The notes below the pieces were generated by a model that saw only the letters and a list, made by a program, of their open reading frames with translations, was not told the origin of the DNA and did not search any database. A DNA stretch of 64,000 nt from Candidatus Poribacteria bacterium (GTDB taxonomy: Bacteria > Poribacteria > WGA-4E > WGA-3G): assembly GCA_028824575.1 (NCBI GenBank), contig JAPPDN010001023.1, positions 25,347 to 89,346 on the forward strand, written 5' to 3'. The position numbers and the translations under genes are program-made. Shown here one piece after another: positions 46,468 to 63,208 of this stretch (position 1 is the stretch's first letter; each line of letters begins with the position of its first letter).

Positions 46468-46494
46468 TCAAGTTTTTAACTTTTTTCGGGATTA

Positions 46495-46521
46495 TGCACC
46501 CTTCGGACCCAAAGCTGTGTC
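46495..46521 (+). promoter_or_regulatory. Copy 1 of the conserved ECF-type promoter-like motif TGCACCCTT-N12-TGTGTC
   Basis: TGCACCCTT cggacccaaagc TGTGTC tttaagtt lies upstream of the mini-ORF, 64-aa peptide and RRE-GT operon. Confidence 0.45.
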
Positions 46522-46543
46522 TTTAAGTTACAAAGGAGGGCGC

Positions 46544-46594
46544 ATGGAAGTCGCCCTAACCCCCAAGTCAATAAACGCATTCGCAATGTCTTGA
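46544..46594 (+). CDS. Candidate 16-codon mini-ORF (MEVALTPKSINAFAMS)
   Basis: ATG 5 nt after a perfect AAGGAGG (46532-46538), about 25 nt downstream of the promoter-like motif. There is no further support. Confidence 0.25.
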   Translation: MEVALTPKSINAFAMS

Positions 46595-46636
46595 CTACGG
46601 GATTTACAAAATCTGAATGAAAGGAGGTAAAACCTA

Positions 46637-46831
46637 ATGAAAACCGCTAAACTGAATCGGATTAAAGAAGTCGGTAAAAAAACTGTTTCTGAATTCGTCC
46701 GTTCCGAAACTGGAAGTGTCGGTGTCAAGAATGCTGCAGCTATTGGAGCCTTCGCAGCCGCCCTCGCACTTAGCCAAACTCCCAGCGAAGCCATTACAGT
46801 GAGTATTGGTGGAGTTGTCACAGCAATATAA
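46637..46831 (+). CDS. 64-aa small peptide: candidate precursor or secreted peptide with an Flp-like N-terminus
   Basis: AAGGAGG RBS 9 nt upstream. MKTAKLNRIKEVGKKTVSEFVRSETGSVGVKNAAAIGAFAAALALSQTPSEAITVSIGGVVTAI. The N-terminal 40 aa are paralogous to the peptide at 58309..58581. A 13-bp stem-loop (46853-46885) follows the stop. Confidence 0.6.
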   Translation: MKTAKLNRIKEVGKKTVSEFVRSETGSVGVKNAAAIGAFAAALALSQTPSEAITVSIGGVVTAI

Positions 46832-47260
46832 CCCCACATACCCGAATCACTATGCCTTGGTTATCGTAGGCTGATAATCAAGGCACAGCGATTCGATATC
46901 AACACCCCCAACATTCCGTTCGCATAAAGATAGGGATCAGGTTTTATAGCGACTCCGTTTTCCCGATATGTCAAACGGCTGACTATTGTTCTACCAGAGG
47001 GTTAATATTCCGAATCAGATTTAGACGTTTTGTGAGGTGCGACCTGTCCCAAACCTTATCACAGGTTAGGATAGAACACTCTCAAGCGTCAAGGTCATAA
47101 TTCTATCCGGCATATTCTATAAGAGTATACTACAATTTTAAACGAAAGTCAAATTTTTAAAGCAACACTCCGTTCTCATACCCAAAGGCGGGCTGCATCC
47201 CCACGCGAAAGTGCGGAGATTTCTCCGGTAAATTTGAAAAAAATATATTGAGGAAGACCC

Positions 47261-48970
47261 ATGCTTAAATGTCCAGCAACACCCCATCGTCTCCACAAAT
47301 TCAGACACAAAGATAGGTTATATTTAGCGGATCTGAATCTGTTTCGGTTAATTGAAGTCAATCAAATTGCTTGGGATGCTGTGGAATTGTCCGTGACGCT
47401 GAAAACACCTGAGTTAATAGATCAGTTAAGCAAAATCTATCCGAAGCCATCCGTCATTGAAACTTTAGAAGCCTTGGGGGATCTTCAAAATAACGATCAT
47501 ATCTTTTATGCCGATTCACAGCAACATGCACCCACAGAAATTAGAGATCGGTTGAAAATTTATGTGCCCCAAAGCAAAGAGGCATGGTTTAAAGATCCGG
47601 AATCACTTTGCGCCGGAACGAATATCGCTTTATATCAAACAATGCAAAGTCTCTCGAAGTTCGCTGATGTTTACATATCGGGAGAATCAGAAGAAGAAAT
47701 CATTCCTGGCGTTCGCACAATAAAACTTTCGAGGGAGGAACTACAAGAATCACCGAGAAGATTCAATCAAAGCCTGAATGAATTGAAAGTGAACGGCATC
47801 TTGGCTTATCAAACCTGTGGCACTTATGACCTTTTACCCTTGCTCCGGGGCGTTAATGTGCCGATCGTTATCCAAAACCATGGTCCCCGAGGACATGCGG
47901 GTTTAGCGATTAATACCACACTGCTACATCACGCCTTAATGCGTCCGTTTGATGCCATTACGGCACCTTCAGAGTCCGTCGCCAAATTCTACGCAAAATT
48001 CGTCGGGGATACCCACCATTTTCACAGCAATCCCAATGGTGTAGATGCTCAGACCTTCAGACCCATGGATAAATCCGAGGCAAAAGCGCAACTCGCTGAA
48101 CTGATGCAAGATAATCGGATTCAAGAGCAATTCACCGTCGGATTTCTCTCGCGATTCCAACCCGAAAAGGGGGGGCATGTCTTTGTCCAATTGGCTGAAA
48201 AGCATCCGGACCTACTTTTTCTGGTAGGTGGGTCGTATTTACTCCGTCCATCCGCCCAGCAATTACCCGATAACCTCATCTATGTCGGCTTTTTACCTCG
48301 GAAACAGTTACCAATGCTCTACAACGCTTTTGATGTCTACTGTTTTCCGACAATGGCGGGAGAAGAGACGTTTGGACTCACACTCTTGGAAGCCATGGCG
48401 TGCGGGGTCCCCCCCGTGGTTCCGAGGTTTGATGGATTGCCTGAAGTTGTTGGAGAGGCAGGTGTCATTGTCGATGCCGAAGAGTTAGCAGAAGATATGG
48501 CAGGTTTCGCAGCTACTGTTTCCGCGGAGTCCCTATCTAAGGGCGTTCAGGAATTGATTGCGGATGAATTTCGCCTCGAAATCGGACAGAAGGCACGCAC
48601 TCGCGCCCTGACGCTCACATGGGATAACAACGCCAAACGTCTCGTTCAACTTTTCCAAGAATTAAATCAAATCAAACAGAACCAGCGGAACGCACCAGAC
48701 TTATCTGTGGGTTTCGTTAACCATTATGATGCGTTTCAAAATCAAGTGGAGAGTCAAGCACTCCTGCTCAATTTAACACCGTTGTTGGAGGCACCCTTAC
48801 AGAAAAAGAGTGGATATGTTCAAACAATGGAAGAAGGATTGGCACTCACTTTGCTAAAACGGCATACCCCCAAACAGGTGGAAGCCGTTCTATCGCACGT
48901 GTTAGACGATGCATCCAACGCCCCTAAAATTGTTCAAAGGGTTCTGAACTTCCTGAATGTGTTGGCGTAG
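47261..48970 (+). CDS. Fusion protein: N-terminal PqqD/RRE-like domain + GT4-type glycosyltransferase + conserved C-terminal module
   Basis: N-terminus HKFRHKDRLYLADLNLFRLIEVNQIAWDAVELSVTLKTPELIDQLSKIYP...ETLEALGDLQNNDHIF (PqqD-like pattern). GT motif GEETFGLTLLEAMACGVPPVVPRFDGLPEVV. C-terminal EEGLALTLLKRHTPKQVEAVLSHVL is shared with the next gene. Confidence 0.7.
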   Translation: MLKCPATPHRLHKFRHKDRLYLADLNLFRLIEVNQIAWDAVELSVTLKTPELIDQLSKIYPKPSVIETLEALGDLQNNDHIFYADSQQHAPTEIRDRLKIYVPQSKEAWFKDPESLCAGTNIALYQTMQSLSKFADVYISGESEEEIIPGVRTIKLSREELQESPRRFNQSLNELKVNGILAYQTCGTYDLLPLLRGVNVPIVIQNHGPRGHAGLAINTTLLHHALMRPFDAITAPSESVAKFYAKFVGDTHHFHSNPNGVDAQTFRPMDKSEAKAQLAELMQDNRIQEQFTVGFLSRFQPEKGGHVFVQLAEKHPDLLFLVGGSYLLRPSAQQLPDNLIYVGFLPRKQLPMLYNAFDVYCFPTMAGEETFGLTLLEAMACGVPPVVPRFDGLPEVVGEAGVIVDAEELAEDMAGFAATVSAESLSKGVQELIADEFRLEIGQKARTRALTLTWDNNAKRLVQLFQELNQIKQNQRNAPDLSVGFVNHYDAFQNQVESQALLLNLTPLLEAPLQKKSGYVQTMEEGLALTLLKRHTPKQVEAVLSHVLDDASNAPKIVQRVLNFLNVLA

Positions 48971-49025
48971 AACGTTTTCACATTTCTGCGGACGGGCGAG
49001 CATTTGCAACAGTGGAGGATTTACA

Positions 49026-50690
49026 ATGATTCAATTACCCAAAAGCCTTCAGCCAATTCATACATTTGAAGAAGCCGGTGTCTGGTATGTCGCACATCTC
49101 CAGAGGGGAGATGTCCTTAAAATTGACCCACTCACAGCCGATATTCTCACTTTATGTAGCACAACTGATAGCGCAGGGATTGTTAAAAAACTGGCGGACA
49201 CATACACAGAAGGCGAGATTCTTGAAAGTCTGAAAAATTTGAGTGGCGATATGGAGGAATTTCTGTTTGAACCTGAGGACATACCTGCTTTCCGCCGTAA
49301 AATAACGCAATCCAGATTAAGGATTTTTATTCCCCACGGCTTCATGAAGTATAGGGAAGTTCTGGGACCGACAGTGAATGCCGGGATTTATAACCTACTC
49401 GTAACGCTTACAAAATATGCCGATGTGTTTGTAGAGGCTGATAACAATCCTACCGTTATGGAACAGCGGGAGCAGCTAATGGCACTCGGTATTGAGTTCG
49501 TATCCGACCTCTTTGAAGCCAATAAGAATACCCCGGTGCATGCCGCAAATCGTTCTATCATTGAAGAGTGTGACGGCATCCTGACCCTTTCCCCACACCC
49601 ACATGAAGAATTGAATTATTTCCGGCATAACACGATCCCCGTAATTTCGCGCGTCTTTAGTGACAGAAATTTACGCGCAGCAACAATTAACAAAGTCCTC
49701 AGCCACCATTCCCTCCACCGCAGTTTTGATGTGGTTTGTCCAGATACGCCGTGGATATCAGAAGAGTTAGAGACAGTCACAGGGGCGCATTTCAATGGAT
49801 TAACCACGATTCCGAGCGGTGTTGATACTGAAGTCTATTCGCCTCAGAATCGTCAGAAGGCACGCGAAGTCGTCGCTTCCATCGTAGAGGAAGAAAGCAT
49901 TCTACAAATGCCATGTGTTGGATTCATTAATGGCTTTCAACCCCAAAATAACCTCAGAATGATAGAAGAGTTAGCAGTCTTACACAAAGACCTTGCCTTC
50001 ATCATCCTTGACCCAATTCTCTCGCGTCATCATTCCCAAAAACCCCGGAATGTTTTTTACATTGACCTGCAAAGTCCGGAGGATACGCTCGCGCTTTCTT
50101 GGATTTATAGCGCGTGTGAGTTTGTCATATTCCCATCCGTCATTGGGACCCCTTTTTCTATGGTCCTTGAGGCATTGGCGTGCGGGGTACCCGCACTCGC
50201 ACTCGCGCCAACACGTTTGTCTGAAGACTTGCGGGGTTGCATAAAATCCGTACCGATCACCCGAGAGACAACGACGGGTAAATTCGTTATCCCTACGGCT
50301 GCTGTCTCCGAAGAAATAAACGCCCTGCTGCGCGCGCCAAAGCAACGAGCGACCCTATCACGGAAAGCACGGGAAATCGCATCCAATTATTCCTGGGATC
50401 AAACAGCTCGAGAGATTATACAACTCTTTACTGCCCTCAATGAAAAGAAGATGCAGAAGGCAGTACCCACCTATCCCGATGTCGCTTTTTCGCCGTATTA
50501 CAACAAAGCGGAAAATGTCGTAAAAAGTGGTGCCCTACAGTTTGATGGTTTTTTTCAACATCGCGTTGAGGAAGGATTAGCGCAGACACTCTTAGCAGAA
50601 CACACGCCCGAGGAGGTCGGGGTGGTTTTGCGATACATACTCAAGGATGCAGAGAAAGCAGACGAAGTCTTATCTACACTGATATCTTAA
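49026..50690 (+). CDS. Paralogous fusion protein: PqqD/RRE-like domain + GT-B glycosyltransferase + conserved C-terminal module
   Basis: The start at MIQLPKS has a GGAGGA RBS. N-terminus FEEAGVWYVAHLQRGDVLKIDPLTADILTLCSTTDSAGIVKKLADTYTEGEILESLKNL. GT motif GTPFSMVLEALACGVPALALAP. C-terminus EEGLAQTLLAEHTPEEVGVVLRYIL. Confidence 0.7.
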   Translation: MIQLPKSLQPIHTFEEAGVWYVAHLQRGDVLKIDPLTADILTLCSTTDSAGIVKKLADTYTEGEILESLKNLSGDMEEFLFEPEDIPAFRRKITQSRLRIFIPHGFMKYREVLGPTVNAGIYNLLVTLTKYADVFVEADNNPTVMEQREQLMALGIEFVSDLFEANKNTPVHAANRSIIEECDGILTLSPHPHEELNYFRHNTIPVISRVFSDRNLRAATINKVLSHHSLHRSFDVVCPDTPWISEELETVTGAHFNGLTTIPSGVDTEVYSPQNRQKAREVVASIVEEESILQMPCVGFINGFQPQNNLRMIEELAVLHKDLAFIILDPILSRHHSQKPRNVFYIDLQSPEDTLALSWIYSACEFVIFPSVIGTPFSMVLEALACGVPALALAPTRLSEDLRGCIKSVPITRETTTGKFVIPTAAVSEEINALLRAPKQRATLSRKAREIASNYSWDQTAREIIQLFTALNEKKMQKAVPTYPDVAFSPYYNKAENVVKSGALQFDGFFQHRVEEGLAQTLLAEHTPEEVGVVLRYILKDAEKADEVLSTLIS

Positions 50691-50772
50691 CGAAGGGAAT
50701 TTTCAGTGAACAATTTCGCAAGTCAGTACGCCATACACCATTGCGATAAAATTAAAAAGAGGAAACCAAGAA

Positions 50773-52389
50773 ATGTCGAGACTCAAAATTGAACGACTTT
50801 TACGCATTGTTTTTATTTTAATTTTCTGTCTGATGCTGCTTCCATCTTTGGTTAAACGCCTGCTGCCGGCACCTAAGATTATCCAAACGATACCCGCTTT
50901 ATCGGAAACCACTAACATCCCAATTGAAACAAAACAGATTCGGATCGTATTTAATCAGCCGATGACAGAAGAGAAAAACATTCAATATCGAGGTATGCGG
51001 ATCAAAGGTCAACCGAAATGGGTCGATGAGAAGCGAACAATTTTAGCATTGACATTGACAGAACCCCTGGAACCCGAAGCGTTTTATAGTATCGTTTTGA
51101 ATGGAAGTTTAAATGGAAGATCCCAGAGCGATGACACAATGAAAGGGCAGTGGGGGAAACCGCTCCCTGAATATGCCTTGACGTTTATAACCGCGCCCTC
51201 CGAGACGATGCAAAAACGGATCGCTGCGTTTCAGTCGGGCACCCTCCATGACACCGATACCGACGGATTGGATGATACCCTCGAAGCCGAACTTGGCACC
51301 CTTTCTACAACACCTGATACGGATGGAGATGGATTGTCGGATTATGAAGAATATTGCAAATACCGAACAGATCCAACCTCAGCCGATAGTGATAGAGATG
51401 GAATCTCCGACGCAGATTGGAATGAGAGAAGGGAGTATACCTATAGTCTCAGAGTCGTTCTTGATATAAAACCGCCATGGAGTCTTGCGTCGATGAACGA
51501 CCTTTTCCAAGATGCCCGACACCTGGCGCACACGCAGTCTAATTATGAGAAGGTAGAAGTTATCGTTTATCCGTATGCTTCGCCTATGCTACTTCCGACC
51601 CGATATCCTTCTCAAATCGCATCTAAGTCCTTGAAAAAATATATTCAACCCACTTGTGATCTGAATTACTCACCAGAAATGCAGAGGGCAATAAAGGAAA
51701 TACTCTCTAATGAAACGCATACACTTGGGGTTATTGATAGATTGCAGCAGGAAGTCGGTCAAATGAAATTAACCGTGCCGCTTTACGATCCATTTATTTA
51801 TACCTATATGAATCACGGAGAATTGATAGTGGACCAAGAATTTTTCGACAGCATGGACAGAAAAATGACCGAAACAGAGATCGAAGAGGTATTGGCTGTG
51901 AATTACTTTGGGGATTCAATGTTCAAGCGAAAGCAGCACGGGGCTTGTATCTCTCGGGCTCGGATCCTTGCGACAATGTTGAGAGCTGCCGGTATCCCTG
52001 CTCGTGTAACCATGGGGGTGCCTCTGATATATTACTACAAAGGAACAGGTGAATGGGAACATCTTATTAAAAACCTAAATAATGAAGAAGTCGCAGGGAG
52101 TTTCTCTTACGAGCGTCCGTCGGCACCTAATGAAGTTGGCATCGTCGGACACAGTCAGGTTGAAGTTTATCTTAACAACCATTGGATTCGGTTGGGCTAT
52201 CAACTCAATGAAGGTCCTATATTTGCTGCGACAGACCTTGTGTTCATCAAGATCATTGACGCATCGGACTTCGCTTCAATAGATTTTACAAAAACTTGGG
52301 CACCCAGATCCTGGCTTAAAGCGCGTCCTTATCGCACTGTTGCGTTATCAGACCAAGCCGCGAAATATCAACCACATTCCTCCTATTAA
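50773..52389 (+). CDS. Secreted multidomain protein: Ig-like (SbsA/Big_5-type) + thrombospondin-type-3 Ca repeats + transglutaminase-like cysteine protease core
   Basis: Signal anchor LLRIVFILIFCLMLLPSL. IRIVFNQPM Ig-like motif. DTDTDGLDD...DTDGDGLSDYEE...DSDRDGISD repeats. HGACISRARILATMLRAAGIPARVTMG (Cys) and GHSQVEVYLNNHWIRLG (His). Confidence 0.7.
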   Translation: MSRLKIERLLRIVFILIFCLMLLPSLVKRLLPAPKIIQTIPALSETTNIPIETKQIRIVFNQPMTEEKNIQYRGMRIKGQPKWVDEKRTILALTLTEPLEPEAFYSIVLNGSLNGRSQSDDTMKGQWGKPLPEYALTFITAPSETMQKRIAAFQSGTLHDTDTDGLDDTLEAELGTLSTTPDTDGDGLSDYEEYCKYRTDPTSADSDRDGISDADWNERREYTYSLRVVLDIKPPWSLASMNDLFQDARHLAHTQSNYEKVEVIVYPYASPMLLPTRYPSQIASKSLKKYIQPTCDLNYSPEMQRAIKEILSNETHTLGVIDRLQQEVGQMKLTVPLYDPFIYTYMNHGELIVDQEFFDSMDRKMTETEIEEVLAVNYFGDSMFKRKQHGACISRARILATMLRAAGIPARVTMGVPLIYYYKGTGEWEHLIKNLNNEEVAGSFSYERPSAPNEVGIVGHSQVEVYLNNHWIRLGYQLNEGPIFAATDLVFIKIIDASDFASIDFTKTWAPRSWLKARPYRTVALSDQAAKYQPHSSY

Positions 52390-52446
52390 GGAGAGAGTGT
52401 CTGACCCTACCAAATCAGAATTTTAATGACTCAGGAGGTTTTGGAA

Positions 52447-53691
52447 ATGTTACAAATTAACGGACGGTTTAAAACAATCTCGACCCCGGCACTTTTCTTG
52501 ACGACTTTATTGATGAGCATAGGTTTGACGCTAACGCCCCACGCCGACATCGATCGAGGCCTCTTTTGTGCAGAGACACTCAGAGACCCGGGCAGTTTAG
52601 CGGTGAAACTCCAAGACAGGCGTGCCGCAGTGTCTGTATCCATAGCCAAGCGATTGCCGATTAATACACAGCAGTTGTTAGCGGAATACGATGGCCGAAG
52701 CAGTCCATCCTCTGAGCTGCAGGAAACACTACTTGCTGATTTGAATCGACTGATTCAAGTAGAATCTCTCTACGATGCTCAAGTGTTCGCAGATATTCAA
52801 CTCAGTGAACAGACGCAGGCACTCATTTCGCGAAAACCGCAAAGTAGAGAGGCACTGGTTCGCCTAAATCGGCACCTCTTAGCGGATGCCTATCCTTATG
52901 AATTAGCCTCGCCTTCAGAGAAACAGACACCTCGGCATTCTGAAGGTATTGCGCTATGTAGAGAAAATTTGCGGCGGATCAAACTCGCTCTTGACAGTTA
53001 TCGGGCTTCCACAGATACAGACCCGCAATGGCTTTCCGATCTTTCACCACACTATCTCGAGAAGAACGTGCTGCTCTGCCCCGCAGACGCGACAGCCGGG
53101 ACACCCGGCGTCCTAACTGATGGCGGTGCCGACCCAACGCATCCTTGCAGTTATCTCTATGAGATGCGTCCTGCTCAGAAAACCGATCACGAACTTTTAC
53201 GAACACTCGAAGGTGAGATGACACCTATCGTTCGGTGTGAACACCATCGTCTCAACCTAAGCATCAGCGGAAAACTCTATCGTAACGGTCCGCAAAGAGG
53301 CATCTATACCAGCAACAAGACAGAAATATCTTTGCTAACTGACTGTAGGAAAGACCTACAGATGCAACTCGGAGAAGATTTCCTAAAAACGCAGGAAAGT
53401 CGACAGAAACTCAAGAGAGAAGCTGAAAAACTGATTATCAAACAGTTGGTGCCGAAAATCATCAGCCACTCAGAGAAAGAGGTTTACTCTCAACTTGAAG
53501 CGCAACTCGGAAAAGGTCTTCTGAAAACACCAATAGGGAAGGGTGTCTTCAAACAAGTCATAACGCAGGTAAAAGAAAAGCTTAATGAAAAATTACAGTT
53601 GCAACTTCAAGCGCAACTCGGAGCGGAATTTTTTGAAACCCAAGAAGGGAAAGACGTACTTCAACAATTATCCGTGTTGATGTCCCCTTAA
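52447..53691 (+). CDS. Hypothetical secreted protein with C-terminal QLGxxF(L/F)xTQEG repeats
   Basis: The start at MLQINGRF has GGAGG 8 nt upstream. Signal-like ALFLTTLLMSIGLTLTPHA. Repeats are MQLGEDFLKTQESRQ, AQLGKGLLKTPIGKG and AQLGAEFFETQEGKD. Confidence 0.55.
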   Translation: MLQINGRFKTISTPALFLTTLLMSIGLTLTPHADIDRGLFCAETLRDPGSLAVKLQDRRAAVSVSIAKRLPINTQQLLAEYDGRSSPSSELQETLLADLNRLIQVESLYDAQVFADIQLSEQTQALISRKPQSREALVRLNRHLLADAYPYELASPSEKQTPRHSEGIALCRENLRRIKLALDSYRASTDTDPQWLSDLSPHYLEKNVLLCPADATAGTPGVLTDGGADPTHPCSYLYEMRPAQKTDHELLRTLEGEMTPIVRCEHHRLNLSISGKLYRNGPQRGIYTSNKTEISLLTDCRKDLQMQLGEDFLKTQESRQKLKREAEKLIIKQLVPKIISHSEKEVYSQLEAQLGKGLLKTPIGKGVFKQVITQVKEKLNEKLQLQLQAQLGAEFFETQEGKDVLQQLSVLMSP

Positions 53692-53784
53692 GGTCTTTAT
53701 CCCTGAATATATTCTAATCTAAGGTTTCCGCTGTTAGGAAAGATGAAGCACTTAAGTGGATAAAAAAATGGAGGAGGAATTCCC

Positions 53785-55212: not shown

Positions 55213-55326
55213 ATCATTGGGCTGGGTCCATCCTTTGAAGGGATTGTGTAAGCAGTCCCTTCAATACGACTCCTGTTCTGACACGGAGCAACTGCAACAC
55301 CGTTTTTTTCATTTGTAAAGCACGAG

Positions 55327-55389
55327 TAAAATTCCCATAGTGACCCCTAAAATTCCCATAGTGACCCCTAAAATTCCCATAGTGACCCC
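55327..55389. repeat. Three perfect tandem copies of a 21-bp unit (iteron-like)
   Basis: TAAAATTCCCATAGTGACCCC occurs three times head-to-tail. An AT-rich stretch and the short inverted repeat GAAAGCGCGTTTCGCGCT follow. The repeats lie 200 bp from the 3' end of the Rep-like gene. Confidence 0.8.
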
Positions 55390-55588
55390 CCGTAATTCTT
55401 AATAAGTATGTAAACCCCTGATTTTACTGGGTTCGTTGAAAGCGCGTTTCGCGCTATATAAGTACTCTTATATTAAAGAAAGAATTATAGAACTCAGCCC
55501 CCACCCCTCCTGTGCAGAATAAAGGCGTTTTGGCGGAGGGGCCCATAAATTTTAATTTTCAACACAAGAAAGAGAAGATTTCGCACCA

Positions 55589-56554
55589 TCAGTCTTTCCT
55601 TTGCGACAACCGCTGAATTTGGCAATGTAACACAACATAGCGTTCAAAATCGCTGGAGATTGATTTCGGCATCACCTGGGCCCTGTGATGGTCACTCACC
55701 CGCTTCCACGTTCCGTCGCGTTGCCGTCTTTCGATCTTCATGTAATCTTCGAGCGGGCACCGATACTGGAGATTGTTGCTATACCAGTAGGTGTCATCGG
55801 TTTTCTGGCATTTCCCGTTGACCCATTCTTCGCGGATCGGTTCAGTTTGTGTCCGTCCTGGGAGGGGCTTGGGATATAACTGAAAGATCGCGGGTTTCGA
55901 TTTAGGGCTCAACCGTTCCAGCATCCCTACCTGCGTGAGTTCGGTGAGTATCGAGTGAAAAGTTGCGAGTTTGATTCGACATCTTTTCGACAGTTCGAGG
56001 AGTGTTGCCTGTTCTGTCTGTCCTGCGGTGTCCTCGTGTGCCTTCCAGTTCGATCGAAGTTTCAACACAATCCAGACGAGGGCGGCTTTCCATGAGATGT
56101 CGCCATCAAAACAGCGTTCCAAGGGACCTCCGGGCCCGCGTGGCACTGCGAACGTCAACGGCTTCCCATCTTTATTGACAGGAACATCCTGATACGGACA
56201 AAGATGATGTCGAATCCGATAGCGTTTTCCCGCAGGGTTGTCAGCGTCGATCGTCTTGAGCCAGCCTTTATCCTTGAGGCTCGTTAAATTCTTGATGATG
56301 TACGGTTTTGACATTCCCGGTCCTAATTTCCCTGATAAATAATTGCCCGACATGGGCCAGGTTATCCCAGAATCCCATGAGCTGCCGTGGTGGAGACACA
56401 GACAAATCATTGCTTGGGCTGTCGTGAGGTTACCCTCTCGGAGTTCCCACAGGACACTATATTGACCGCGGGGCACAGGCAGTGTGTCGGTTTCAAACTC
56501 ATACGGGATCGGGTATTTGCCACCAAGAGGCAGATAAATTTGCTGACTGCTCAT
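55589..56554 (-). CDS. Two-winged-helix DNA-binding protein, candidate replication initiator (Rep-like)
   Basis: Two wHTH-like segments: MSKPYIIKNLTSLKDKGWLKTID and ATLLELSKRCRIKLATFHSILTELTQVGMLERL. Iteron-like repeats are adjacent. An 11-bp perfect inverted repeat (56651-56685) lies upstream of the start. The function is inferred. Confidence 0.4.
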   Translation of the reverse strand: MSSQQIYLPLGGKYPIPYEFETDTLPVPRGQYSVLWELREGNLTTAQAMICLCLHHGSSWDSGITWPMSGNYLSGKLGPGMSKPYIIKNLTSLKDKGWLKTIDADNPAGKRYRIRHHLCPYQDVPVNKDGKPLTFAVPRGPGGPLERCFDGDISWKAALVWIVLKLRSNWKAHEDTAGQTEQATLLELSKRCRIKLATFHSILTELTQVGMLERLSPKSKPAIFQLYPKPLPGRTQTEPIREEWVNGKCQKTDDTYWYSNNLQYRCPLEDYMKIERRQRDGTWKRVSDHHRAQVMPKSISSDFERYVVLHCQIQRLSQRKD

Positions 56555-57271
56555 AGTAGAATCTTTCTAAAAAGAGAAAGGCATTGCAGAGCGGGTATCC
56601 GGAGAATGCCGGTATATTTGATAGGCATCTAAAAATCTATATGGAGATGCAGTGCTATGCAGATACAAAGCGCGTGCATAGCACTCTCTGAAGTAAAAGA
56701 CATAATATTCAAAAGTGGTATCGCTTCGGTGTTTCGCTCCGCCACTGGCAGCAAAACGTTTCCGATCTAAGCAACAACCTCCGCCAAGAGGTTGGGGAGG
56801 AGGAACCATTCCCTTGAGAGGGAATTTGGCAGAGATTCCTCCACACCGAAGCTTAGATAGGGAGTGCCAAGAAAATAGCACTCAGAATGTCTGTCTCCAG
56901 AACATTCCATAGATAATTATACCCGACTTCTTGTGAAAAAGTCAAGAAGAAATATCTTTTTCCTTATAGTGATACTTACTGATATACTTAAAGACTTAAC
57001 TTTTATGCAGAAAACGTGCAAGATTGACAAAAATATGAAAAAAACTGAATTTATAGTAGGGTCAATAATTACTTGGACACTCTGATTGTAGCGCAAACTT
57101 TTAGTTTGCGTGCCACCCCCGCACAAACTAAAAGTTTATGCTACGAATGTTCACTTATTTTTCGGTTTTACTATAATTCTGAAGATCAGAGAAATCGAGG
57201 GGAAATGTGGAAGGGGGCATCTCACCGAGAAAATTGTTGGAAAGGCTTGCTCCGCAACACCGCTGCACGTG

Positions 57272-58093
57272 CTATGTTTGCTCGGAAATGGCTCTATCAA
57301 CCCTTAAACTCACTAAACTCATAACCAAATGCTTCGCTACAACGAAAACAACGAAATACATCCCTAAGAAAAAGATAATACTCGAAAAAAACGCCTCCAC
57401 ACACACTGATAACTGCAGTGAAACCCATACGGTCAGAAAACCAGTAATCGCATAATAAACGGGCGTTCTCGGAACACACGACACCAATTTCCCCAGCACA
57501 GTGAACACGCTCAATACCATAACCAGACGCACAAATCCATCCGGCTGCCACCCTAGCCAGTCCGACAGATACGTCAACCCAGAACTGACACCGATCAGGA
57601 GAAGCACGTTAAAGCATTGCTCAAGGAGTGCGGATTTCTCGAAATTTGACATCACAAAACTCTGGAAAAGCAACAACTTGTCGCGTTTTAGGGCGAATCT
57701 GAAAAAGAGGTACACCAGCACGGCTACCGAATACGGGAGGATGATGTTCAGCGCAAGGATCAACGGGGGAAAACTGAACGTCCCGTCCAGGCGTGTCAAT
57801 AGCGATCGCGGAAAGACCAGACATAACCCGCAAAGCAATTTTGAATCCCCAGGCGAGAAAATACCGAACCAATACACCCCAAACGCCATAAAACCGATCC
57901 CTAAAAAAAGCAACAACACATAAATCGGCGCTGTCATACGAAGATACCATGCCATCAATGTGCTCAACGTCCGCGCATGAAGCAGCCCCAGCGAACAAAC
58001 ATTGCGGATCCGCCCCGTCTTCAGGTCGGTATAACCCGCATACCCACGGAAAGTAGGGACTAACGATAGAAGAACGCTCTCGTAGTGTGACAT
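57272..58093 (-). CDS. A24-family (prepilin/TadV-CpaA-type) aspartyl peptidase-like membrane protein
   Basis: The start at MSHYESV has an AAGGAG RBS. First Asp motif YTDLKTGRIRN, second Asp motif IFSPGDSKLLCGL. Polytopic. Confidence 0.65.
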   Translation of the reverse strand: MSHYESVLLSLVPTFRGYAGYTDLKTGRIRNVCSLGLLHARTLSTLMAWYLRMTAPIYVLLLFLGIGFMAFGVYWFGIFSPGDSKLLCGLCLVFPRSLLTRLDGTFSFPPLILALNIILPYSVAVLVYLFFRFALKRDKLLLFQSFVMSNFEKSALLEQCFNVLLLIGVSSGLTYLSDWLGWQPDGFVRLVMVLSVFTVLGKLVSCVPRTPVYYAITGFLTVWVSLQLSVCVEAFFSSIIFFLGMYFVVFVVAKHLVMSLVSLRVDRAISEQT

Positions 58094-58308
58094 CGGTGTC
58101 TCCTTTTCATGAAACCTGTATGCCTCAACCCCGGTAGGTGCGATTTCATGAAGTTTCAAAAAATATTTCGGTAATTCTCTATTTCCCCCGACCCGGTAGG
58201 TGTGGTTTCTAACCGCACCGGCATCGTTGGGAAATTACCAAATTAATAAATTAATCTTCATTTAACCGCACCGGAGATTATTAGAAAATTACTTACCCGG
58301 ACCACGAG

Positions 58309-58581
58309 TCAAACGCATTTGTCTACCCACTCCCCATTGCATTCGGTCCCTTGCAGCGTTCCCTCACACACCTCTTCACAACTTTCCCACAAGTTACAGT
58401 CAAAGTCACTATCACACTCTTCTTTTCCAGAATCATAAGAATGTGCAGAAGGCGGCAGCAGGGCTTGCGCTAACAGCACGCTCCCACTTGCTATGCCTAA
58501 TACCAAGGGTGTTTTCAGACCGACACGTCCCTCTTCAGATGTCAGAAATTGCTTAATTTTTCCACGAAGTTTAGTTTTCAT
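58309..58581 (-). CDS. 90-aa peptide: Flp-like N-terminus plus acidic 6-cysteine C-terminal module
   Basis: ATG at 58581 with an AAGGAG RBS; the longer ORF-track form to 58827 has none. MKTKLRGKIKQFLTSEEGRVGLKTPLVLGIASGSVLLAQALLPPSAHS then YDSGKEECDSDFDCNLWESCEEVCEGTLQGTECNGEWVDKCV. Confidence 0.55.
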   Translation of the reverse strand: MKTKLRGKIKQFLTSEEGRVGLKTPLVLGIASGSVLLAQALLPPSAHSYDSGKEECDSDFDCNLWESCEEVCEGTLQGTECNGEWVDKCV

Positions 58582-58749
58582 CTCGAATTTCTCCTTTTTG
58601 TAATGTGCTATTATCAGGATGGGGCTCCTCACCACGATGGACGGAAACCCGTTGCCGGTGCTCATCGTATTGCACGTTGGAGTAAATCTACACGCTGGAA
58701 CGGGTAATAAAGTTTTCCAGGCGATACCCTTCAGTGCTTTAAACTTAAA

Positions 58750-58776
58750 GACACCGTTATAGGCGAAAAGGGTGCA
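58750..58776 (-). promoter_or_regulatory. Copy 2 of the promoter-like motif (minus strand, GGTGTC variant)
   Basis: The minus strand reads TGCACCCTT ttcgcctataac GGTGTC tttaagttt. It lies about 170 nt upstream of the 90-aa peptide gene. Confidence 0.4.
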
Positions 58777-58974
58777 TAGTGCTAAAAAAGTCTTAAAGGT
58801 TTTAATTCCGTTCACCGATCCCTCCACAGCGAATAACAGAAAAAATTCCGAAAAAACAGATACATTCTATGCTACACTCAAAGGCAATTAACATGCCGTG
58901 TGGGGCTCCGGAACAAAATTGAATTGGCGTTAAAATAAAAAAAATCTGCATTTCCTAAATATTTTTGATACAGA

Positions 58975-59001
58975 TGCACCCTTTTGAAAATAAATTGTGT
59001 C
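58975..59001 (+). promoter_or_regulatory. Copy 3 of the promoter-like motif
   Basis: TGCACCCTT ttgaaaataaat TGTGTC ttttaatt, 85 nt upstream of the ECF sigma fusion gene and divergent from copy 2. Confidence 0.45.
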
Positions 59002-59085
59002 TTTTAATTTTAAAGAGGGGTGGACTGCTCTTAAGATTTCGGATTTTAAGAGGGGTTCATTGACCAAAAAGATGGGAGAATTCTG

Positions 59086-62016
59086 ATGGTAGATAACGAC
59101 GTTCAACTGATTCGCAGAATTTTGTCGGGCGACGATGAAGCGTTCAGTACATTAATGCGGAAGCACCAAAAAGGCGTTCACGCGCTGATCTGGCGGAAAA
59201 TTGGGGACTTTCAAATCGCTGAGGAAATTACCCAAGATACCTTTATCCAGGTTTACAAAAAACTCGGGACCCTCGACGATCCCAAACGATTTTCCGGCTG
59301 GCTTTATGTCATCGCGAATCGCCTCTGTATTAATTGGCTCCAACGCGATAAGGTAAAAATGGATAAGTTGAATACACAATCCTTCGAGGATACACATCCA
59401 GAGGAAATAGAAGAGGCCTCTCACCTACACCATGCGTCACATCAACGTGAAGCTGAAGCCGAGAGTCGTCGACGGAATCTCGTAAAAACGCTTTTGGAGA
59501 AACTCCCGGAGAGCGAACGCACTGTCGTGACGCTTTACTTTCTCGGTGAAATGACGGCCAAAGAGATCGGCAATTTTTTAGGCGTATCCATCAACACAAT
59601 TAAGAGCCGACTCCGCCGGGCGCGCAAACGTCTCCAAGAAGAGGAAGCCTTGGTCCAAGAAACGCTTAGGGGTGTGCAATTGTCTGACAGTCTCACTGAG
59701 AATGTGATGCGACACATTGCCGAGCTGAGCCCACCCGCGCCACCCCCGTCTAAGAAACCCTTACTTCCTTTGGCGGCACTCGGTGCCGTAGCCGTCTTGG
59801 CGGTCCTCTTCGGTATCGGGGGGCAATATCTCCTCCGGTTTCAGGCACCATACAGTTTCGATGCCGACGCTGAGCCTACCATCGAAATCGTTGATGAACT
59901 CGTCTACCTTGAGATTCTCGCCAAACCCGCAGTGCGGAACCGGAGCGGCAGAACGATCGCACCCGGTGAAAACAGCGGTGCCGGGATGCAAACCGCCGAG
60001 CCTCACTTCACCGCAAACGCAGCGGACGACACGGGGGCCGACTCACAGTGGACACAGGCAATCGGCCCGACAGGCAGTATTGTCTACAATATCTTTGAAG
60101 CCGCTGACGGAACCCTCTACGCTGCCGCAAAAACAGGGCTCTATAAATTGACACCCGAGGCAACATGGGTGCTTCTTAACGCTGACATCCCGATTGGACA
60201 GTACCGAATCCCTATCACCGAGCACCACGGCACCCTCTATACCGTCTCCGCTGATGAAGTGTTGGCTTCAGAAAATGGGGGTGAGACTTGGGATGCCCTT
60301 GGCGCGCGCCCAAAGGGCATCGCGAATGGACTCATCATCACCGAGTCACCCGAGACAGAAGGTATCACCCTGTCCCTCGCCCTTCAAGAGAAAGGCATCT
60401 TCCGATCTACCGATACCGGTCAGCACTGGATGCCCCTCACCACCGGATTGACAGGGAAACGGATTTATACCCTCGCTGCCATCGGAAATACCTTATTCGC
60501 TGGCACCAACCAAGGCCTCTATCGGCTCGATTCAAACGAATGGCACCCATTGCTCACAGACGCAGCCGATGCCATCTACGCCGTGACCGTTGACGGAAGC
60601 GACCTGTATGTCGGAATGGGTCGAGATGTCGAGAGGTCGGTATCCAGGAGACTCAGGCGCCCTAAATCCATAGACAAAAGAATCTTCCACTCCGCGGATC
60701 TTGGAGCGTCATGGACGGACATAACGCCTATAGATGAATCCCAAGTGATGCATCTCGACTCCGGCCTACAGATTTTGGCTGTAGATAAAACGCTCTTCGT
60801 CCTCGGCGTAACCGAATTTCGATCCGGGGATGGCGGGAAAACCTGGACACGCCTCAGATCTAACATAAGTTCAAAGGACACATCGAGATTCCCAGCGATC
60901 GCTATCGATGCGAATACATTTTACAAAGTCGATCCGCACGGAATCAGCCGCACCACCGATGCCGGTGAGTCCTGGCACCCGCTTGTAAACGGGATGACAG
61001 GTCCCAGAACATACGACTTAATTGCCCTGAATCAGAGACTCTATATGCATATCGGTGGACACCTGGTCCACTCCACCGATGCCGGTCAGACCTGGCAACG
61101 CCTGCGCTTCAATACCGATGCGCCGACACCCACATTGGATCCCGATTTTTATGCACGCATAAGACTCACAACTGCCAATAATCGCCTCTATGGCATTTCA
61201 ATTGTGGAGAACAGACCGAGTCTTTTCCGAACATCCGATGCCGGAGATGAACTCATCCCCCTCCAAGGGGTCCCCGCTTTTGAACCCGAGCCACCCCCAG
61301 CCAGGGCAAGCGATAGGTTGCGTCTATCGAGAAAAGTAGGTTTAAGAATCAAAGCCTTCGCTGTCTGGGGTGAGACGTTTTACGCGAAATATCAGGAGAA
61401 ACTTTACAAATGGCACCCCGGAGATACCGAATGGACAGACACAGGACTTGCCGATCTCGACTTTCTATCTTCTATCTTGGCTGTTTCTGGGGAAACTGTC
61501 TACATCAGTAAGCCGTACGGTAAGCCGCGCGGAACATTGTTTCAATCTTTAGACGGCGGAGACTCTTGGAAAGACATCACTGCAAGGCTGCCGAGCGGAT
61601 CCACACGTTCTTTAGACGACGGAGATGTCTTGAAACACAAGGGCATACTGACGAGAAGCCACTTCACACGTTTTAAGGAGATGACCTTCATCGGTTCAGC
61701 CGTTTGTATCGCAACCGACACAGGTGTCCTCACCTCACACACCGGAGAACACTGGCGGGTTATCACAGATAAAAACCGGATGCCCATCGTCATAGAAAAA
61801 TTCGCTACAGACGGCACAACCCTCTACGGGGTCAGCAAGAACGGTGCCTACCGCTTCAATGCTGCCGGAGACTGGGAACTGATTTCCTCAGAGGTTCCCA
61901 ACGGTTCGATTCAATCTCTCGTTATCAGTAACAATCGACTTTACATCGCAACCTCCAGCGACGGCATATTCCACATCTCGCTTGAGGAGCAGATCGATAT
62001 CGCCAACTCGTTCTAA
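59086..62016 (+). CDS. ECF sigma-70 factor fused through one transmembrane helix to a large BNR/Asp-box beta-propeller ectodomain
   Basis: Sigma region 2 AEEITQDTFIQVYKKLGTLDDPKRFSGWLYVIANRLCINWLQR. Region 4 LPESERTVVTLYFLGEMTAKEIGNFLGVSINTIKSRLRRARKRL. TM LLPLAALGAVAVLAVLFGIGG. At least 7 Asp-boxes (SENGGETW, STDTGQHW, SADLGASW, SGDGGKTW, TTDAGESW, STDAGQTW, SLDGGDSW). Confidence 0.85.
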   Translation: MVDNDVQLIRRILSGDDEAFSTLMRKHQKGVHALIWRKIGDFQIAEEITQDTFIQVYKKLGTLDDPKRFSGWLYVIANRLCINWLQRDKVKMDKLNTQSFEDTHPEEIEEASHLHHASHQREAEAESRRRNLVKTLLEKLPESERTVVTLYFLGEMTAKEIGNFLGVSINTIKSRLRRARKRLQEEEALVQETLRGVQLSDSLTENVMRHIAELSPPAPPPSKKPLLPLAALGAVAVLAVLFGIGGQYLLRFQAPYSFDADAEPTIEIVDELVYLEILAKPAVRNRSGRTIAPGENSGAGMQTAEPHFTANAADDTGADSQWTQAIGPTGSIVYNIFEAADGTLYAAAKTGLYKLTPEATWVLLNADIPIGQYRIPITEHHGTLYTVSADEVLASENGGETWDALGARPKGIANGLIITESPETEGITLSLALQEKGIFRSTDTGQHWMPLTTGLTGKRIYTLAAIGNTLFAGTNQGLYRLDSNEWHPLLTDAADAIYAVTVDGSDLYVGMGRDVERSVSRRLRRPKSIDKRIFHSADLGASWTDITPIDESQVMHLDSGLQILAVDKTLFVLGVTEFRSGDGGKTWTRLRSNISSKDTSRFPAIAIDANTFYKVDPHGISRTTDAGESWHPLVNGMTGPRTYDLIALNQRLYMHIGGHLVHSTDAGQTWQRLRFNTDAPTPTLDPDFYARIRLTTANNRLYGISIVENRPSLFRTSDAGDELIPLQGVPAFEPEPPPARASDRLRLSRKVGLRIKAFAVWGETFYAKYQEKLYKWHPGDTEWTDTGLADLDFLSSILAVSGETVYISKPYGKPRGTLFQSLDGGDSWKDITARLPSGSTRSLDDGDVLKHKGILTRSHFTRFKEMTFIGSAVCIATDTGVLTSHTGEHWRVITDKNRMPIVIEKFATDGTTLYGVSKNGAYRFNAAGDWELISSEVPNGSIQSLVISNNRLYIATSSDGIFHISLEEQIDIANSF

Positions 62017-62142
62017 ACCTTCACCGCACCCCTACCCCCCGGTTCTTTTTTTCCCCGAATACGGGTGGCAATTCAGAATCGGGGGATTCCCAATTGCCAC
62101 TTGCCACCCGGCGATTGCTGCCGACTTCCATTTCTCAGAGTA

Positions 62143-62169
62143 TGCACCCTTTTGGACACAAAATGTGTC
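62143..62169 (+). promoter_or_regulatory. Copy 4 of the promoter-like motif
   Basis: TGCACCCTT ttggacacaaaa TGTGTC cttaaatt, upstream of repeat element R1 and the 134-aa ORF. Confidence 0.4.
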
Positions 62170-62292
62170 CTTAAATTATAAAAAGCAACGCGTAGATACG
62201 ACTTTAACGGCAAGCTCCGTTCGCGCGACGCGTAGAACCCTTTCATGGAGCTTACCTCACATTTACGAAAGTTTGGACAATTTGAGGATTTA

Positions 62293-62426
62293 TGGTGAAT
62301 TATATAAATAAGTTTACATTTACAAATCGTAGTCCCTTACCGAAACCGTGGAATTCCCCCCTGATAAGGGGGGTTAGGGGGGTTAGATGTTGTTGGATGC
62401 TGTCTAAGTAATTCTAAAATCTACCA
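62293..62426. repeat. 134-bp repeat element R1 (three invariant blocks, two variable spacers, imperfect terminal inverted repeats)
   Basis: Blocks are TGGTGAATTATATAAATAAGT, AATTCCCCCCTGATAAGGGGGGTTAGGGGGGTTA and TGTCTAAGTAATTCTAAAATCTACCA. All three are identical to R2 and have identical spacing (38-nt and 15-nt spacers). Confidence 0.8.
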
Positions 62427-62451
62427 TAAATACGAACAGAGGACTAAAAAC

Positions 62452-62856
62452 ATGGATTCAAACTATAGGTATAAAGATGCACGTCTGAAGCCTAAAATCG
62501 CCAAAGCCATCATCTTAGAACAGTTTGCCGGAAAAACCATGAGCAGACGAGAGATTGATGCTGCCGTTATCCAACACCATGAATCAAACGGAGGGCTTCC
62601 GTCAACGGCTAAGACAAACCCTATCAAAGCGGCGCTTAGATATTTAAAAGACAAGAATTTTGCCGAAAATGTTTCCAGCGGTTCAGGCAGCACGTGGCGA
62701 ATTTTTGAGAATCCCAAACCTGTTTCCGAACCCTTGGGTACCCAACGGCTTATCGAAATGATTAAAGCAGAAATCCAATATCTCACAACGCTGATGAAAT
62801 CCTTTGAACATCGAGTCGCCGAACTTGAAGCGATACTCACCAAAGAAAATCAATAG
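62452..62856 (+). CDS. Hypothetical protein (134 aa) with a C-terminal coiled coil
   Basis: GAGGA RBS. I recognise no family motif. The gene is flanked by R1 and R2. Confidence 0.5.
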   Translation: MDSNYRYKDARLKPKIAKAIILEQFAGKTMSRREIDAAVIQHHESNGGLPSTAKTNPIKAALRYLKDKNFAENVSSGSGSTWRIFENPKPVSEPLGTQRLIEMIKAEIQYLTTLMKSFEHRVAELEAILTKENQ

Positions 62857-62952
62857 TATTTCGCAAGAGCATCAGCTTATGGGGAGGTCCCTAATAGCCC
62901 GGCATCCTCCCCGCCTCCCTGTCCATATCCGTTACCACCGTTCTCCAATCCT

Positions 62953-63086
62953 TGGTGAATTATATAAATAAGTAGACTTATGCAAGTCAATGTATCCTGA
63001 GCAAGACCACTAATTCCCCCCTGATAAGGGGGGTTAGGGGGGTTAAGTCCTCATCTGTAATGTCTAAGTAATTCTAAAATCTACCA
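62953..63086. repeat. 134-bp repeat element R2
   Basis: It has the same three invariant blocks as R1, exactly 660 bp downstream of each R1 block. The spacers are the same length but only about 40% identical. Confidence 0.8.
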
Positions 63087-63129
63087 CTGTTGCTGTCCCG
63101 TGAGAGCTCAAGACGATTCTTCCGCAGTA

Positions 63130-63156
63130 TGCACCCTTTTCGCCCAAAGTTGTGTC
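63130..63156 (+). promoter_or_regulatory. Copy 5 of the promoter-like motif
   Basis: TGCACCCTT ttcgcccaaagt TGTGTC cttaattg, about 50 nt upstream of the ECF sigma gene start. Confidence 0.45.
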
Positions 63157-63208
63157 CTTAATTGTAAAAGGGAGTAACACTTTATACACTGACATTCGGG
63201 AGGCAAAT

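Follow-up and report, generated by a model that had tools for sequence, protein, structure and literature searches.

An ECF-type promoter-like element of about 55 bp shared by peptide loci and two sigma-factor genes in Candidatus Poribacteria

Sigma factors of the extracytoplasmic function (ECF) type usually autoregulate, conserved motifs upstream of their genes predict their promoters, and group-specific promoter motifs have been predicted in the ECF classification 2.0 (PMC7826278). A 64-kb stretch of the genome of a Candidatus Poribacteria bacterium (contig JAPPDN010001023.1, positions 25,347 to 89,346; hereafter "the window", with positions counted from its first nucleotide) raises the question of whether the same logic applies there. 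A preliminary description had reported five copies of a 27-bp motif in this window, ahead of two peptide loci and of two genes encoding ECF sigma factors. Are these copies promoters and, if so, which of the two sigma factors would read them? The present analysis, based on sequence comparisons, suggests with a probability of roughly 0.7 that the five sites are autoregulated ECF-type promoters of ECF-TM-BNR, a sigma factor fused to a transmembrane (TM) helix and a BNR-type ectodomain, and that the other genes of the regulon are its targets.

A search of the window with the pattern TGCACCCTT-N12-KGTGTC returned exactly five matches, at 46495-46521 (+), 58750-58776 (-), 58975-59001 (+), 62143-62169 (+) and 63130-63156 (+), whereas 100 dinucleotide-preserving shuffles gave a mean of 0.00 matches and a largest count of 0. 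All five copies are trailed by YTTWA (in coordinate order TTTAA, TTTAA, TTTTA, CTTAA and CTTAA). Read in the shorter form GCACC-N16-GTGTC, the motif designates the same five sites with 0 mismatches, and the sole further match in the window, at 22335, requires 1 mismatch. A weight matrix of 56 columns, derived from 86 independent Poribacteria instances, attributes 58.8-60.5 bits to the five sites, and its scan of the 64 kb found no other position scoring 12 bits or more, i.e., no weaker copy elsewhere. The number of copies, their positions and identical spacing, the trailing (C/T)TT(A/T)A and the lack of any other copy in the window were thus all correctly described from the start.

According to a repeat finder and an anchored alignment, the similarity among the window copies spans about 55 nt, and the five copies, each an exact match to the pattern, are therefore considered here as five elements of this length. 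Element 1 (46482..46536, +; 58.8 bits), which includes the T-tract and the tail and has its TGCACCCTT at 46495 and the end of its GTGTC at 46521, precedes the genes of a 64-aa peptide and of glycosyltransferases. Element 2 (58735..58789, -; 59.4 bits; TGCACCCTT starting at 58776) precedes the genes of a Cys-rich peptide and of a putative peptidase, and element 3 (58962..59016, +; 60.5 bits), the proposed autoregulatory site, lies upstream of the ECF-TM-BNR gene. Element 4 (62130..62184, +; 59.0 bits) precedes a repeat, R1a, and then the gene of a 134-aa protein, p134, while element 5 (63117..63171, +; 59.4 bits) precedes the gene of the second ECF sigma factor, ECF2. Elements 2 and 3 form a divergent pair, back to back and 198 nt apart, an arrangement also present in three loci of other genomes (loci are designated here by L numbers: L012, L049 and L054). 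Measured from the final C of GTGTC, the start codon of ECF2 (ATG at 63209) lies 52 nt downstream, that of ECF-TM-BNR 84 nt, that of the 64-aa peptide 115 nt and that of the Cys-rich peptide 168 nt; the longest distance, 282 nt, is that of p134, with repeat R1 in between. All five start codons are accompanied by a Shine-Dalgarno-like sequence, so that the downstream genes first assigned to the five copies, with gaps of 52-282 nt, are retained.

The conserved element is longer than the 27 bp first noted. It extends over about 55 bp, from -13 to +41 when counted from the T of TGCACC, and comprises a T-tract, A-TGCACCCTT, an A-rich spacer, TGTGTC-YTTWA and TTATAAAGG. Beyond the positions imposed by the search pattern, the 86 unique instances conserve the T-tract (-13 to -9), single nucleotides at -1 (A) and +9 (T), AAAA in the spacer (+16 to +19) and TTATAAAGG at +33 to +41; the information content is high only inside these limits and about 0 outside -13..+41. 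The two main blocks, TGCACC-N16-GTGTC in 5/5 window sites, are separated by the distance of about 16-17 nt that is typical of the -35 and -10 of ECF promoters. This spacing is retained in the 86 independent instances, a few sites having 1 extra nucleotide (13-nt spacer). A scan of the 46-64 kb region for sigma-70 consensus promoters and for terminators gave counts equal to those of shuffled sequences and nothing at the five sites.

The distribution of the element was analyzed with the pattern TGCACCCTT-N12-KGTGTCYTTWA, searched in one genome for each of 185,579 species of bacteria and archaea. Seventy-nine loci matched this strict pattern, among which 77 belong to Candidatus Poribacteria or to metagenome-assembled genomes (MAGs) carrying the same gene families; the two others, one in a Clostridia MAG and one in a Pirellulales MAG, seem fortuitous. 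Complete Poribacteria chromosomes (about 5-6.7 Mb) harbor 3-6 strict copies, some clustered and some megabases apart, which is the opposite of a motif found at high frequency throughout the genome. In 606 kb of Poribacteria DNA (8-kb blocks around the matches), the weight-matrix scores are bimodal: 112 sites reach at least 28 bits, and the interval between 15 and 28 bits is almost empty; the few low-scoring sites are true sites with a 13-nt spacer. The placement of the 91 sites located far enough from the ends of their loci was compared with that of random positions in the same loci (200 trials). Only 1% of these sites lie inside an open reading frame (ORF) of at least 120 aa, compared to 75% of random positions (minimum 60%), and 62% are followed within 450 nt by the start of an ORF of this size on the same strand, compared to 21% of random positions (maximum 33%); a large part of the other sites is followed by a short ORF instead. 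This intergenic and gene-directed placement is promoter-like, unlike that of a dispersed repeat or of a coding motif. Furthermore, numerous Poribacteria species have kept the motif ahead of orthologous genes despite the divergence of the flanking sequences. Taken together, the fixed bipartite geometry, strict orientation, intergenic position, low copy number and conservation at orthologous genes support the ECF promoter reading that the preliminary description had proposed.

The autoregulation that it had also proposed is supported by the genes found behind the element. The ECF-TM-BNR gene (59086..62016, +) encodes sigma2 and sigma4 domains (approximately residues 1-190), a juxtamembrane segment, a single hydrophobic segment (approximately residues 225-252) corresponding to one TM helix, and then BNR/sortilin/YCF48-type repeats that would form a BNR/sortilin-like beta-propeller. 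The protein matches PF04542, PF08281, PF14870, PF15902 and PF02012 and scores 99.4 bits with the ECF model TIGR02937, well above its cut-off of 42.9. The motif is located 97-222 nt upstream of 18 of the 21 ECF-TM-BNR genes identified by orthology of their sigma domains in the loci fetched with the motif. Among the three others, a 19th (L060) is preceded by a one-base variant, GTGTCATTAA, and two are in operons behind another gene. Three additional loci (L165-L167) were fetched by means of p134 homologues and are therefore independent of the motif; all three carry a divergent motif pair between the glycosyltransferase operon and the ECF-TM-BNR gene.

Our analysis also revealed that ECF-TM-BNR belongs to a Poribacteria-specific paralogue family of 1,013 protein clusters (E <= 1e-10), the best 120 of which show 56-82% identity over the sigma domain, the juxtamembrane segment and the TM helix. 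Sigma2 and sigma4 are nearly invariant among paralogues and the family shares the juxtamembrane segment LVQExLGGVQL..LTENIMRQVAD and one TM helix, whereas the ectodomains vary (BNR/sortilin, Kelch or leucine-rich repeats (LRR)). A single 552-kb contig carries at least four members of the family (L131, L142, L148 and L149). From metagenomes, 78 paralogue loci (L084-L161) were fetched by protein similarity and the regions upstream of the paralogue genes were examined. The degenerate motif TGCA[AC][CG]-N15-18-(C/T)GTC/TATC/AGTC is present within 300 nt upstream of 34 of 74 paralogues, compared to 3/74 for its reverse complement and to a mean of 2.4 (maximum 8) for random windows. Its form varies with the relatedness of the sigma factor: an 80%-identical orthologue has the motif exactly as in the window; paralogues with 59-67% identity have TGCACCC, TGCACGT or TGCAAGT with GTGTC, GTATC or TCGTC and a TTTAAT tail; and those with 47-57% identity have TGCAACC-N16-(A/G)CGTC and lack the tail. 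The TGCAACC-N16-CGTC of these distant paralogues is a textbook ECF promoter. Since the motif grades into this textbook form across the paralogues, the window motif appears as one dialect of an autoregulatory promoter of the whole family.

In Bacillus, the autoregulated ECF sigma factors sigmaM, sigmaV and sigmaW have promoters of the TGCAAC/TGAAAC-N16-17-CGTC type. The window elements resemble such promoters by their bipartite structure with a 16-17-nt spacing, by a -10 that ends in GTC, by their location upstream of the gene of the sigma factor itself and of a small set of envelope or secretion genes, and by the fact that distant paralogues of the window sigma factor carry exactly TGCAACC-N16-CGTC. 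They differ from them by their -35, TGCACCC, whose core is CAC/CCC instead of the usual AAC, by their -10, TGTGTC, whose core is TGTC with a conserved GTC instead of the usual CGT(C), and by the conservation of about 55 bp, including the T-tract, the spacer A-tract and TTTAA-TTATAAAGG. An ECF promoter with its regulon is a well-known kind of system. What is new here is the consensus TGCACCC ... TGTGTC in a conserved frame of 55 bp, its restriction to an uncultivated phylum together with its conservation across this phylum, and its association with a large family of sensor-sigma fusions anchored in the membrane. In the searchable literature, whose coverage is incomplete, we found no description of an ECF motif or transcriptional regulon from Poribacteria and nothing relevant about an ECF sigma factor with a BNR extension.

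Two other proteins encoded behind the element, ECF2 and p134, have to be considered before deciding what reads it. ECF2 (63209..63826, +) is a stand-alone ECF sigma factor of 205 aa (PF04542 and PF08281; 114.7 bits with TIGR02937) that shows 28% identity with the sigma domain of ECF-TM-BNR; no anti-sigma gene is adjacent to it. Its gene heads an operon that encodes two nucleotidyl-transferases (NTP_transferase, directly next to it), an ABC ATPase, an outer-membrane efflux protein and an A24 peptidase detectable with Pfam. The p134 gene (62452..62856, +), which forms a conserved pair with ECF2, encodes a Poribacteria-specific protein of 134 aa predicted to be a winged-helix protein with a long C-terminal helix. 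It has no Pfam match, and its homologues (81 clusters) are all Poribacteria-like. Its AlphaFold2 (AF2) model, built with database homologues, has a mean confidence (pLDDT) of 90.9, and its top Foldseek matches are Pex, PadR, Rv0081 and SqrR (E 7.8e-4 to 0.03, TM-score about 0.4-0.5); these matches include Pex/PadR-, ArsR- and MarR-type winged helix-turn-helix (wHTH) regulators with a long C-terminal helix. The p134 orthologues of L026, L035, L049, L053, L073, L165 and L166 are preceded by the motif; L165 and L166 are two of the three p134-anchored loci. A shorter p134 paralogue of about 100 aa, devoid of the C-terminal helix, was also detected (P0169-P0199).

The element could be an ECF promoter whose cognate sigma factor is ECF2, which would then autoregulate its own gene and drive that of ECF-TM-BNR. 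Both proteins are bona fide ECF sigma factors, the motif lies directly upstream of ECF2 and of four of its orthologues (L038, L056, L066 and L073), and transcriptional control with positive feedback would make sense for a sigma factor devoid of an adjacent anti-sigma gene. This explanation is nevertheless unlikely. In the loci fetched independently of the motif, ECF2 has no motif of its own (0/2) and just follows p134; ECF2 of L035, L053 and L070 likewise lacks one. In L167, the divergent motif pair is kept with no ECF2 beside p134. Moreover, the promoter dialect tracks the family of ECF-TM paralogues and not ECF2. The motifs upstream of ECF-TM-BNR orthologues, the p134-anchored loci and the promoter dialects of the paralogues together favor ECF-TM-BNR, which is most likely the cognate sigma factor; ECF2 would be one of its targets and, most plausibly, the second step in a cascade of sigma factors.

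The possibility that the 55 bp are mainly an operator for a regulator such as p134 has some arguments in its favor, since p134 has a confident winged-helix model with PadR/Pex-like top matches, is limited to the same phylum as the motif and is encoded within the core of the regulon, while the element exceeds the length contacted by a sigma factor and has a partly palindromic tail (CTTTA-N5-TAAAG) that is missing in the dialect of the distant paralogues. In a weaker form of this proposal, the element would be both promoter and operator, p134 binding the tail over the start site. We consider it quite improbable, because the two most invariant blocks are asymmetric and lie at the -35/-10 distance of ECF promoters on either side of a non-conserved spacer that tolerates 12-13 nt, because the strict orientation toward genes is not expected for the operator of a dimeric wHTH protein, and because the motif grades into the canonical ECF consensus. 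In addition, the symmetry of the tail is weak (T 0.44 at +36, A 0.56 at +39) and the Foldseek E-values of p134 are modest (7.8e-4 at best). Nevertheless, p134 may bind part of the element as an extra layer on top of the promoter and not as a replacement for it. Promoters of a non-ECF sigma factor (a group-3 sigma-70 relative or sigma-54) or a housekeeping promoter of the phylum might also be envisaged, as one MAG has a non-ECF gene of the sigma-70 family under the motif (L027), sigma-54 activators are found among the regulon members and the -35 is not the usual AAC. This is highly improbable given that, in a genome of about 5.5 Mb, only 3-6 strict copies precede a few gene families, which does not fit a housekeeping promoter, that the -10 ends in GTC at an ECF-like spacing and that the co-variation with the sigma family designates ECF sigma factors. 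The sigma-54 and sigma-28 readings were rejected: a GG-N10-GC (-24/-12) pair is found neither in the five sites nor in the profile of the 86 instances, and the spacer GCCGATAA is restricted to one orthologous gene family. A last reading, in which the copies have no promoter function and are what remains of a mobile element or dispersed repeat, or belong to a structured RNA, might be suggested by the approximately 20 nt of identical upstream flank that several copies share in one MAG (L001, L016 and L033) and by the presence of a separate repeat, R1, at the window locus. It has a negligible likelihood, as the conservation ends at about 55 bp, many species have the sites at equivalent places ahead of orthologous genes, the 12-nt spacer lacks both conservation and consistent pairing, and an Rfam scan of the whole window detected no family, giving no support for an RNA element.

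Several points weigh against the assignment of the five sites to ECF-TM-BNR and, for some of them, against the promoter reading itself. The -35 and -10 depart, as described above, from those of most ECF promoters, in which AAC and CGTC are found, and the length and strong conservation of the element are unusual for a promoter; a second bound factor may account for its T-tract, spacer A-tract and TTTAA-TTATAAAGG tail. The motif is shared by two unrelated ECF genes. The choice of ECF-TM-BNR over ECF2 is based on co-variation within the family, which is confounded with phylogeny, and the near invariance of sigma2 and sigma4 in such a huge family makes cross-recognition likely, so that a specific sigma factor cannot be named with certainty. 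About 40 of the 74 paralogues have no recognizable motif within 300 nt, many of them apparently being separated by a short gap from another gene located upstream. Lastly, about 35 residues separate sigma4 from the TM helix in ECF-TM-BNR, and Pfam detected no anti-sigma (ASD/ZAS) domain among them; an AF2 model of residues 1-235, run to look for docking of the juxtamembrane segment on the sigma domains, gave a low confidence for this segment (pLDDT <50 for residues 193-235).

If the ECF-TM-BNR assignment is nevertheless followed, each element would be an ECF (group 4 sigma-70) promoter of about 55 bp with a T-tract, a -35 TGCACCC(TT), a spacer of 16-17 nt with an A-tract, a -10 TGTGTC followed by YTTWA and an A/G-rich start region, TTATAAAGG. 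If the -10 corresponds to the GTC(TTT) of other ECF promoters, transcription would be expected to start in the TTATAAAGG block, probably about 7-10 nt past GTGTC. The element would be read by ECF-TM-BNR or by close paralogues with near-identical sigma2 and sigma4 domains. The predicted topology places the sigma domain in the cytoplasm and the BNR/sortilin-like propeller outside, on the other side of one membrane helix. A signal perceived by the ectodomain would free or activate the sigma domain, probably through regulated proteolysis by analogy with IutY and SCO4117. The freed sigma factor would then activate its own gene at element 3, generating a positive feedback, the operon of the 64-aa peptide and glycosyltransferases and the divergent Cys-rich peptide/peptidase unit at elements 1 and 2, and p134 and ECF2, the latter heading its nucleotidyl-transferase/export operon, at elements 4 and 5. 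In other Poribacteria, secreted propeller proteins (PD40 and Kelch) and sigma-54 activators devoid of a sensor would also be expressed from the same promoter.

Fused transmembrane ECF sigma factors activated by proteolysis are known: IutY of Pseudomonas putida (ECF243) is a sigma/anti-sigma hybrid released by Prc and RseP, and SCO4117 of Streptomyces coelicolor (ECF52) is a sigma/anti-sigma hybrid with a carbohydrate-binding ectodomain (PMC8999054). Like them, ECF-TM-BNR associates in one polypeptide an N-terminal ECF sigma factor, a TM segment and an extracytoplasmic sensor domain. It differs from them by its BNR/sortilin-like propeller ectodomain, by the phylum in which it is found and by the lack of a recognizable anti-sigma or zinc-finger domain, in place of which a conserved segment of about 35 aa, modeled with low confidence, is all that is found. 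The ECF-TM family also differs by its massive expansion and by the Kelch and LRR ectodomains of its paralogues, and the proteolytic activation would apply to it only by analogy. The proposed cascade can be compared with that in which HrpR/S and sigma-54 drive HrpL (ECF32), an ECF sigma factor devoid of anti-sigma factor and under transcriptional control (PMC8999054, PMC7826278). In both cases, an ECF sigma factor without neighboring anti-sigma gene, here ECF2, lies behind the promoter of another sigma factor, and sensor-less sigma-54 activators belong to the network. However, the direction is reversed, as the ECF promoter would here drive the sigma-54 activators.

The extent of the regulon was examined through ORF clustering, tblastn searches with the window proteins and Pfam scans of the genes located downstream of the motif. 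ECF-TM-BNR fusions constitute the largest group. The other recurrent genes encode p134, ECF2, secreted PD40/TolB-like propeller proteins, Kelch proteins and sigma-54 enhancer-binding proteins (PF00158 and HTH_8) devoid of an N-terminal sensor domain. Divergently from the fusion gene are found either the Cys-rich peptide and its polytopic membrane partner, or an operon encoding two glycosyltransferases (GT1 and GT2), the peptide and the partner. ThsB-type TIR proteins and another gene of the sigma-70 family are each found under the motif in single genomes only. Therefore, the "compact regulon" initially predicted stands for the conserved core cluster, as seen in the window, but not for the dispersed members (sigma-54 activators, PD40/TolB-like, Kelch and TIR genes), and the regulon is only partly compact. 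The sigma-54 activators (about 330-370 aa, AAA+ domain and Fis-type HTH; L005, L014, L018, L030, L041, L055, L063 and L078) are often separated from the motif by leaders of 250-400 nt. The presence of an ECF-type promoter ahead of them implies an ECF-to-sigma-54 cascade. The content of the core locus also varies between species, since in some genomes (L073, 4582-6441 (-); L053; L026) a conserved gene of 98-101 aa without family match, with its own motif copy, is found between p134 and ECF2. In the CAXXUA01 MAG, paralogous genes for ThsB-type TIR-domain proteins (PF08937, E 2.5e-14) lie behind the motif (L016 390-421 and L017 5-36), and the identical upstream flank of several copies mentioned above suggests a recent duplication of a promoter-gene cassette. 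Lastly, L081 (948-2159) and L082, the same region in two assemblies, differ by an IS605 OrfB/Cas12f-like TnpB gene: a motif variant (TGCACAG, 13-nt spacer) is followed by a WD40 gene in L082, from which the inserted TnpB gene separates it in L081.

The two peptide loci of the window appear to be related to each other. The 64-aa peptide (46637..46831, +; an ORF with a strong Shine-Dalgarno sequence) and the Cys-rich secreted-type peptide (58309..58581, -; an ORF of 90 aa) begin with the leaders EFVRSETGSVGVK and MKTKLRGKIKQFLTSEEGRVGLK, respectively. Both leaders are of a common type, [EQ]F[VL]xSExGxVG[VL]K, and are followed by a hydrophobic stretch. No orthologue of the 64-aa peptide was found among the fetched loci. 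The orthologues of the Cys-rich peptide either adjoin the putative peptidase or end GT1-GT2-peptide-peptidase operons (L051 and L062). In L051 and L062, a single operon preceded by the motif thus encodes the Cys-rich peptide, its membrane partner and the glycosyltransferases, which supports a functional link between the two peptide loci of the window. GT1 (47261-48970) and GT2 (48957-50690), encoded together at 47261..50690 (+), are paralogous GT4 glycosyltransferases (PF00534 and PF13692). Orthologous operons are under the motif in L006, L019, L022, L051, L062, L075 and L165-L167; in other genomes, the operon is preceded by the motif or by its TGCACCTTT variant. The leader of the 64-aa peptide gene also contains, at 46533-46595, a conserved AAAGGAGG just after element 1 and 5 nt ahead of the ATG of a 16-codon ORF (MEVALTPKSINAFAMS), which may be a small upstream ORF.

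The putative peptidase is a polytopic membrane protein (57272..58093, -; gene call of 273 aa) conserved beside the Cys-rich peptide. It was initially labeled as an A24 peptidase. Searches gave no Pfam match (E up to 1, including PF01478), no NCBIfam match and, with a profile of six sequences, no PDB match, and the label thus finds no support in profiles; two invariant Asp residues (in YTDLKT and SPGDSK), compatible with a GXGD-type protease, keep it plausible. A weak PF01478 match was obtained for a different gene located about 6 kb past the end of the window, in the operon headed by ECF2 (L162, 14872-16041). In the intergenic region between an ABC-2 permease gene and a minus-strand gene (55589-56554), a 21-nt unit, TAAAATTCCCATAGTGACCCC, occurs three times in perfect tandem (55327-55389).

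The repeat R1, present on both sides of p134, is a module of about 135 nt with two copies 660 nt apart: R1a (62293-62430), within the p134 leader, and R1b (62953-63090), just upstream of element 5. The ends of the two copies are identical (TGGTGAATTATATAAATAAGT ... TGTCTAAGTAATTCTAAAATCTACCA) and partly inverted, their center is an identical AATTCCCCCCTGATAAGGGGGGTTAGGGGGGTTA hairpin and the rest is variable. This hairpin was also found in two other Poribacteria loci (L043, 7078-7095; L095, 3852-3869). The predicted RNA fold of R1a is not significant (z = -1.77). R1 could be an element similar to a miniature inverted-repeat transposable element or a regulatory module.

A wider model, which we put forward only tentatively and hold to be rather doubtful in its entirety, would be that Poribacteria expanded a family of single-pass TM ECF sigma factors with eukaryote-like repeat ectodomains that converge on one shared promoter dialect (many sensors to one promoter), coupling host or glycan cues to transcription. 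In the window, a sensor of this kind would have under its control a second sigma factor, a wHTH co-regulator bound to the conserved tail of the element, and secreted peptides that are glycosylated and pilin-like. Whatever the fate of this model, Poribacteria are uncultivated sponge symbionts, and the element described here provides a precise promoter consensus for them together with a short list of co-regulated genes, i.e., those of the sensor-sigma fusion, ECF2, the wHTH protein, the peptides, glycosyltransferases and export proteins, the sigma-54 activators and the secreted propellers. It offers a handle for interpreting sponge metatranscriptomes as well as a candidate orthogonal sigma/promoter pair for synthetic biology. 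Overall, the existence of a large phylum-specific family of membrane-anchored ECF sigma factors with varied ectodomains may indicate how these symbionts sense their host environment.

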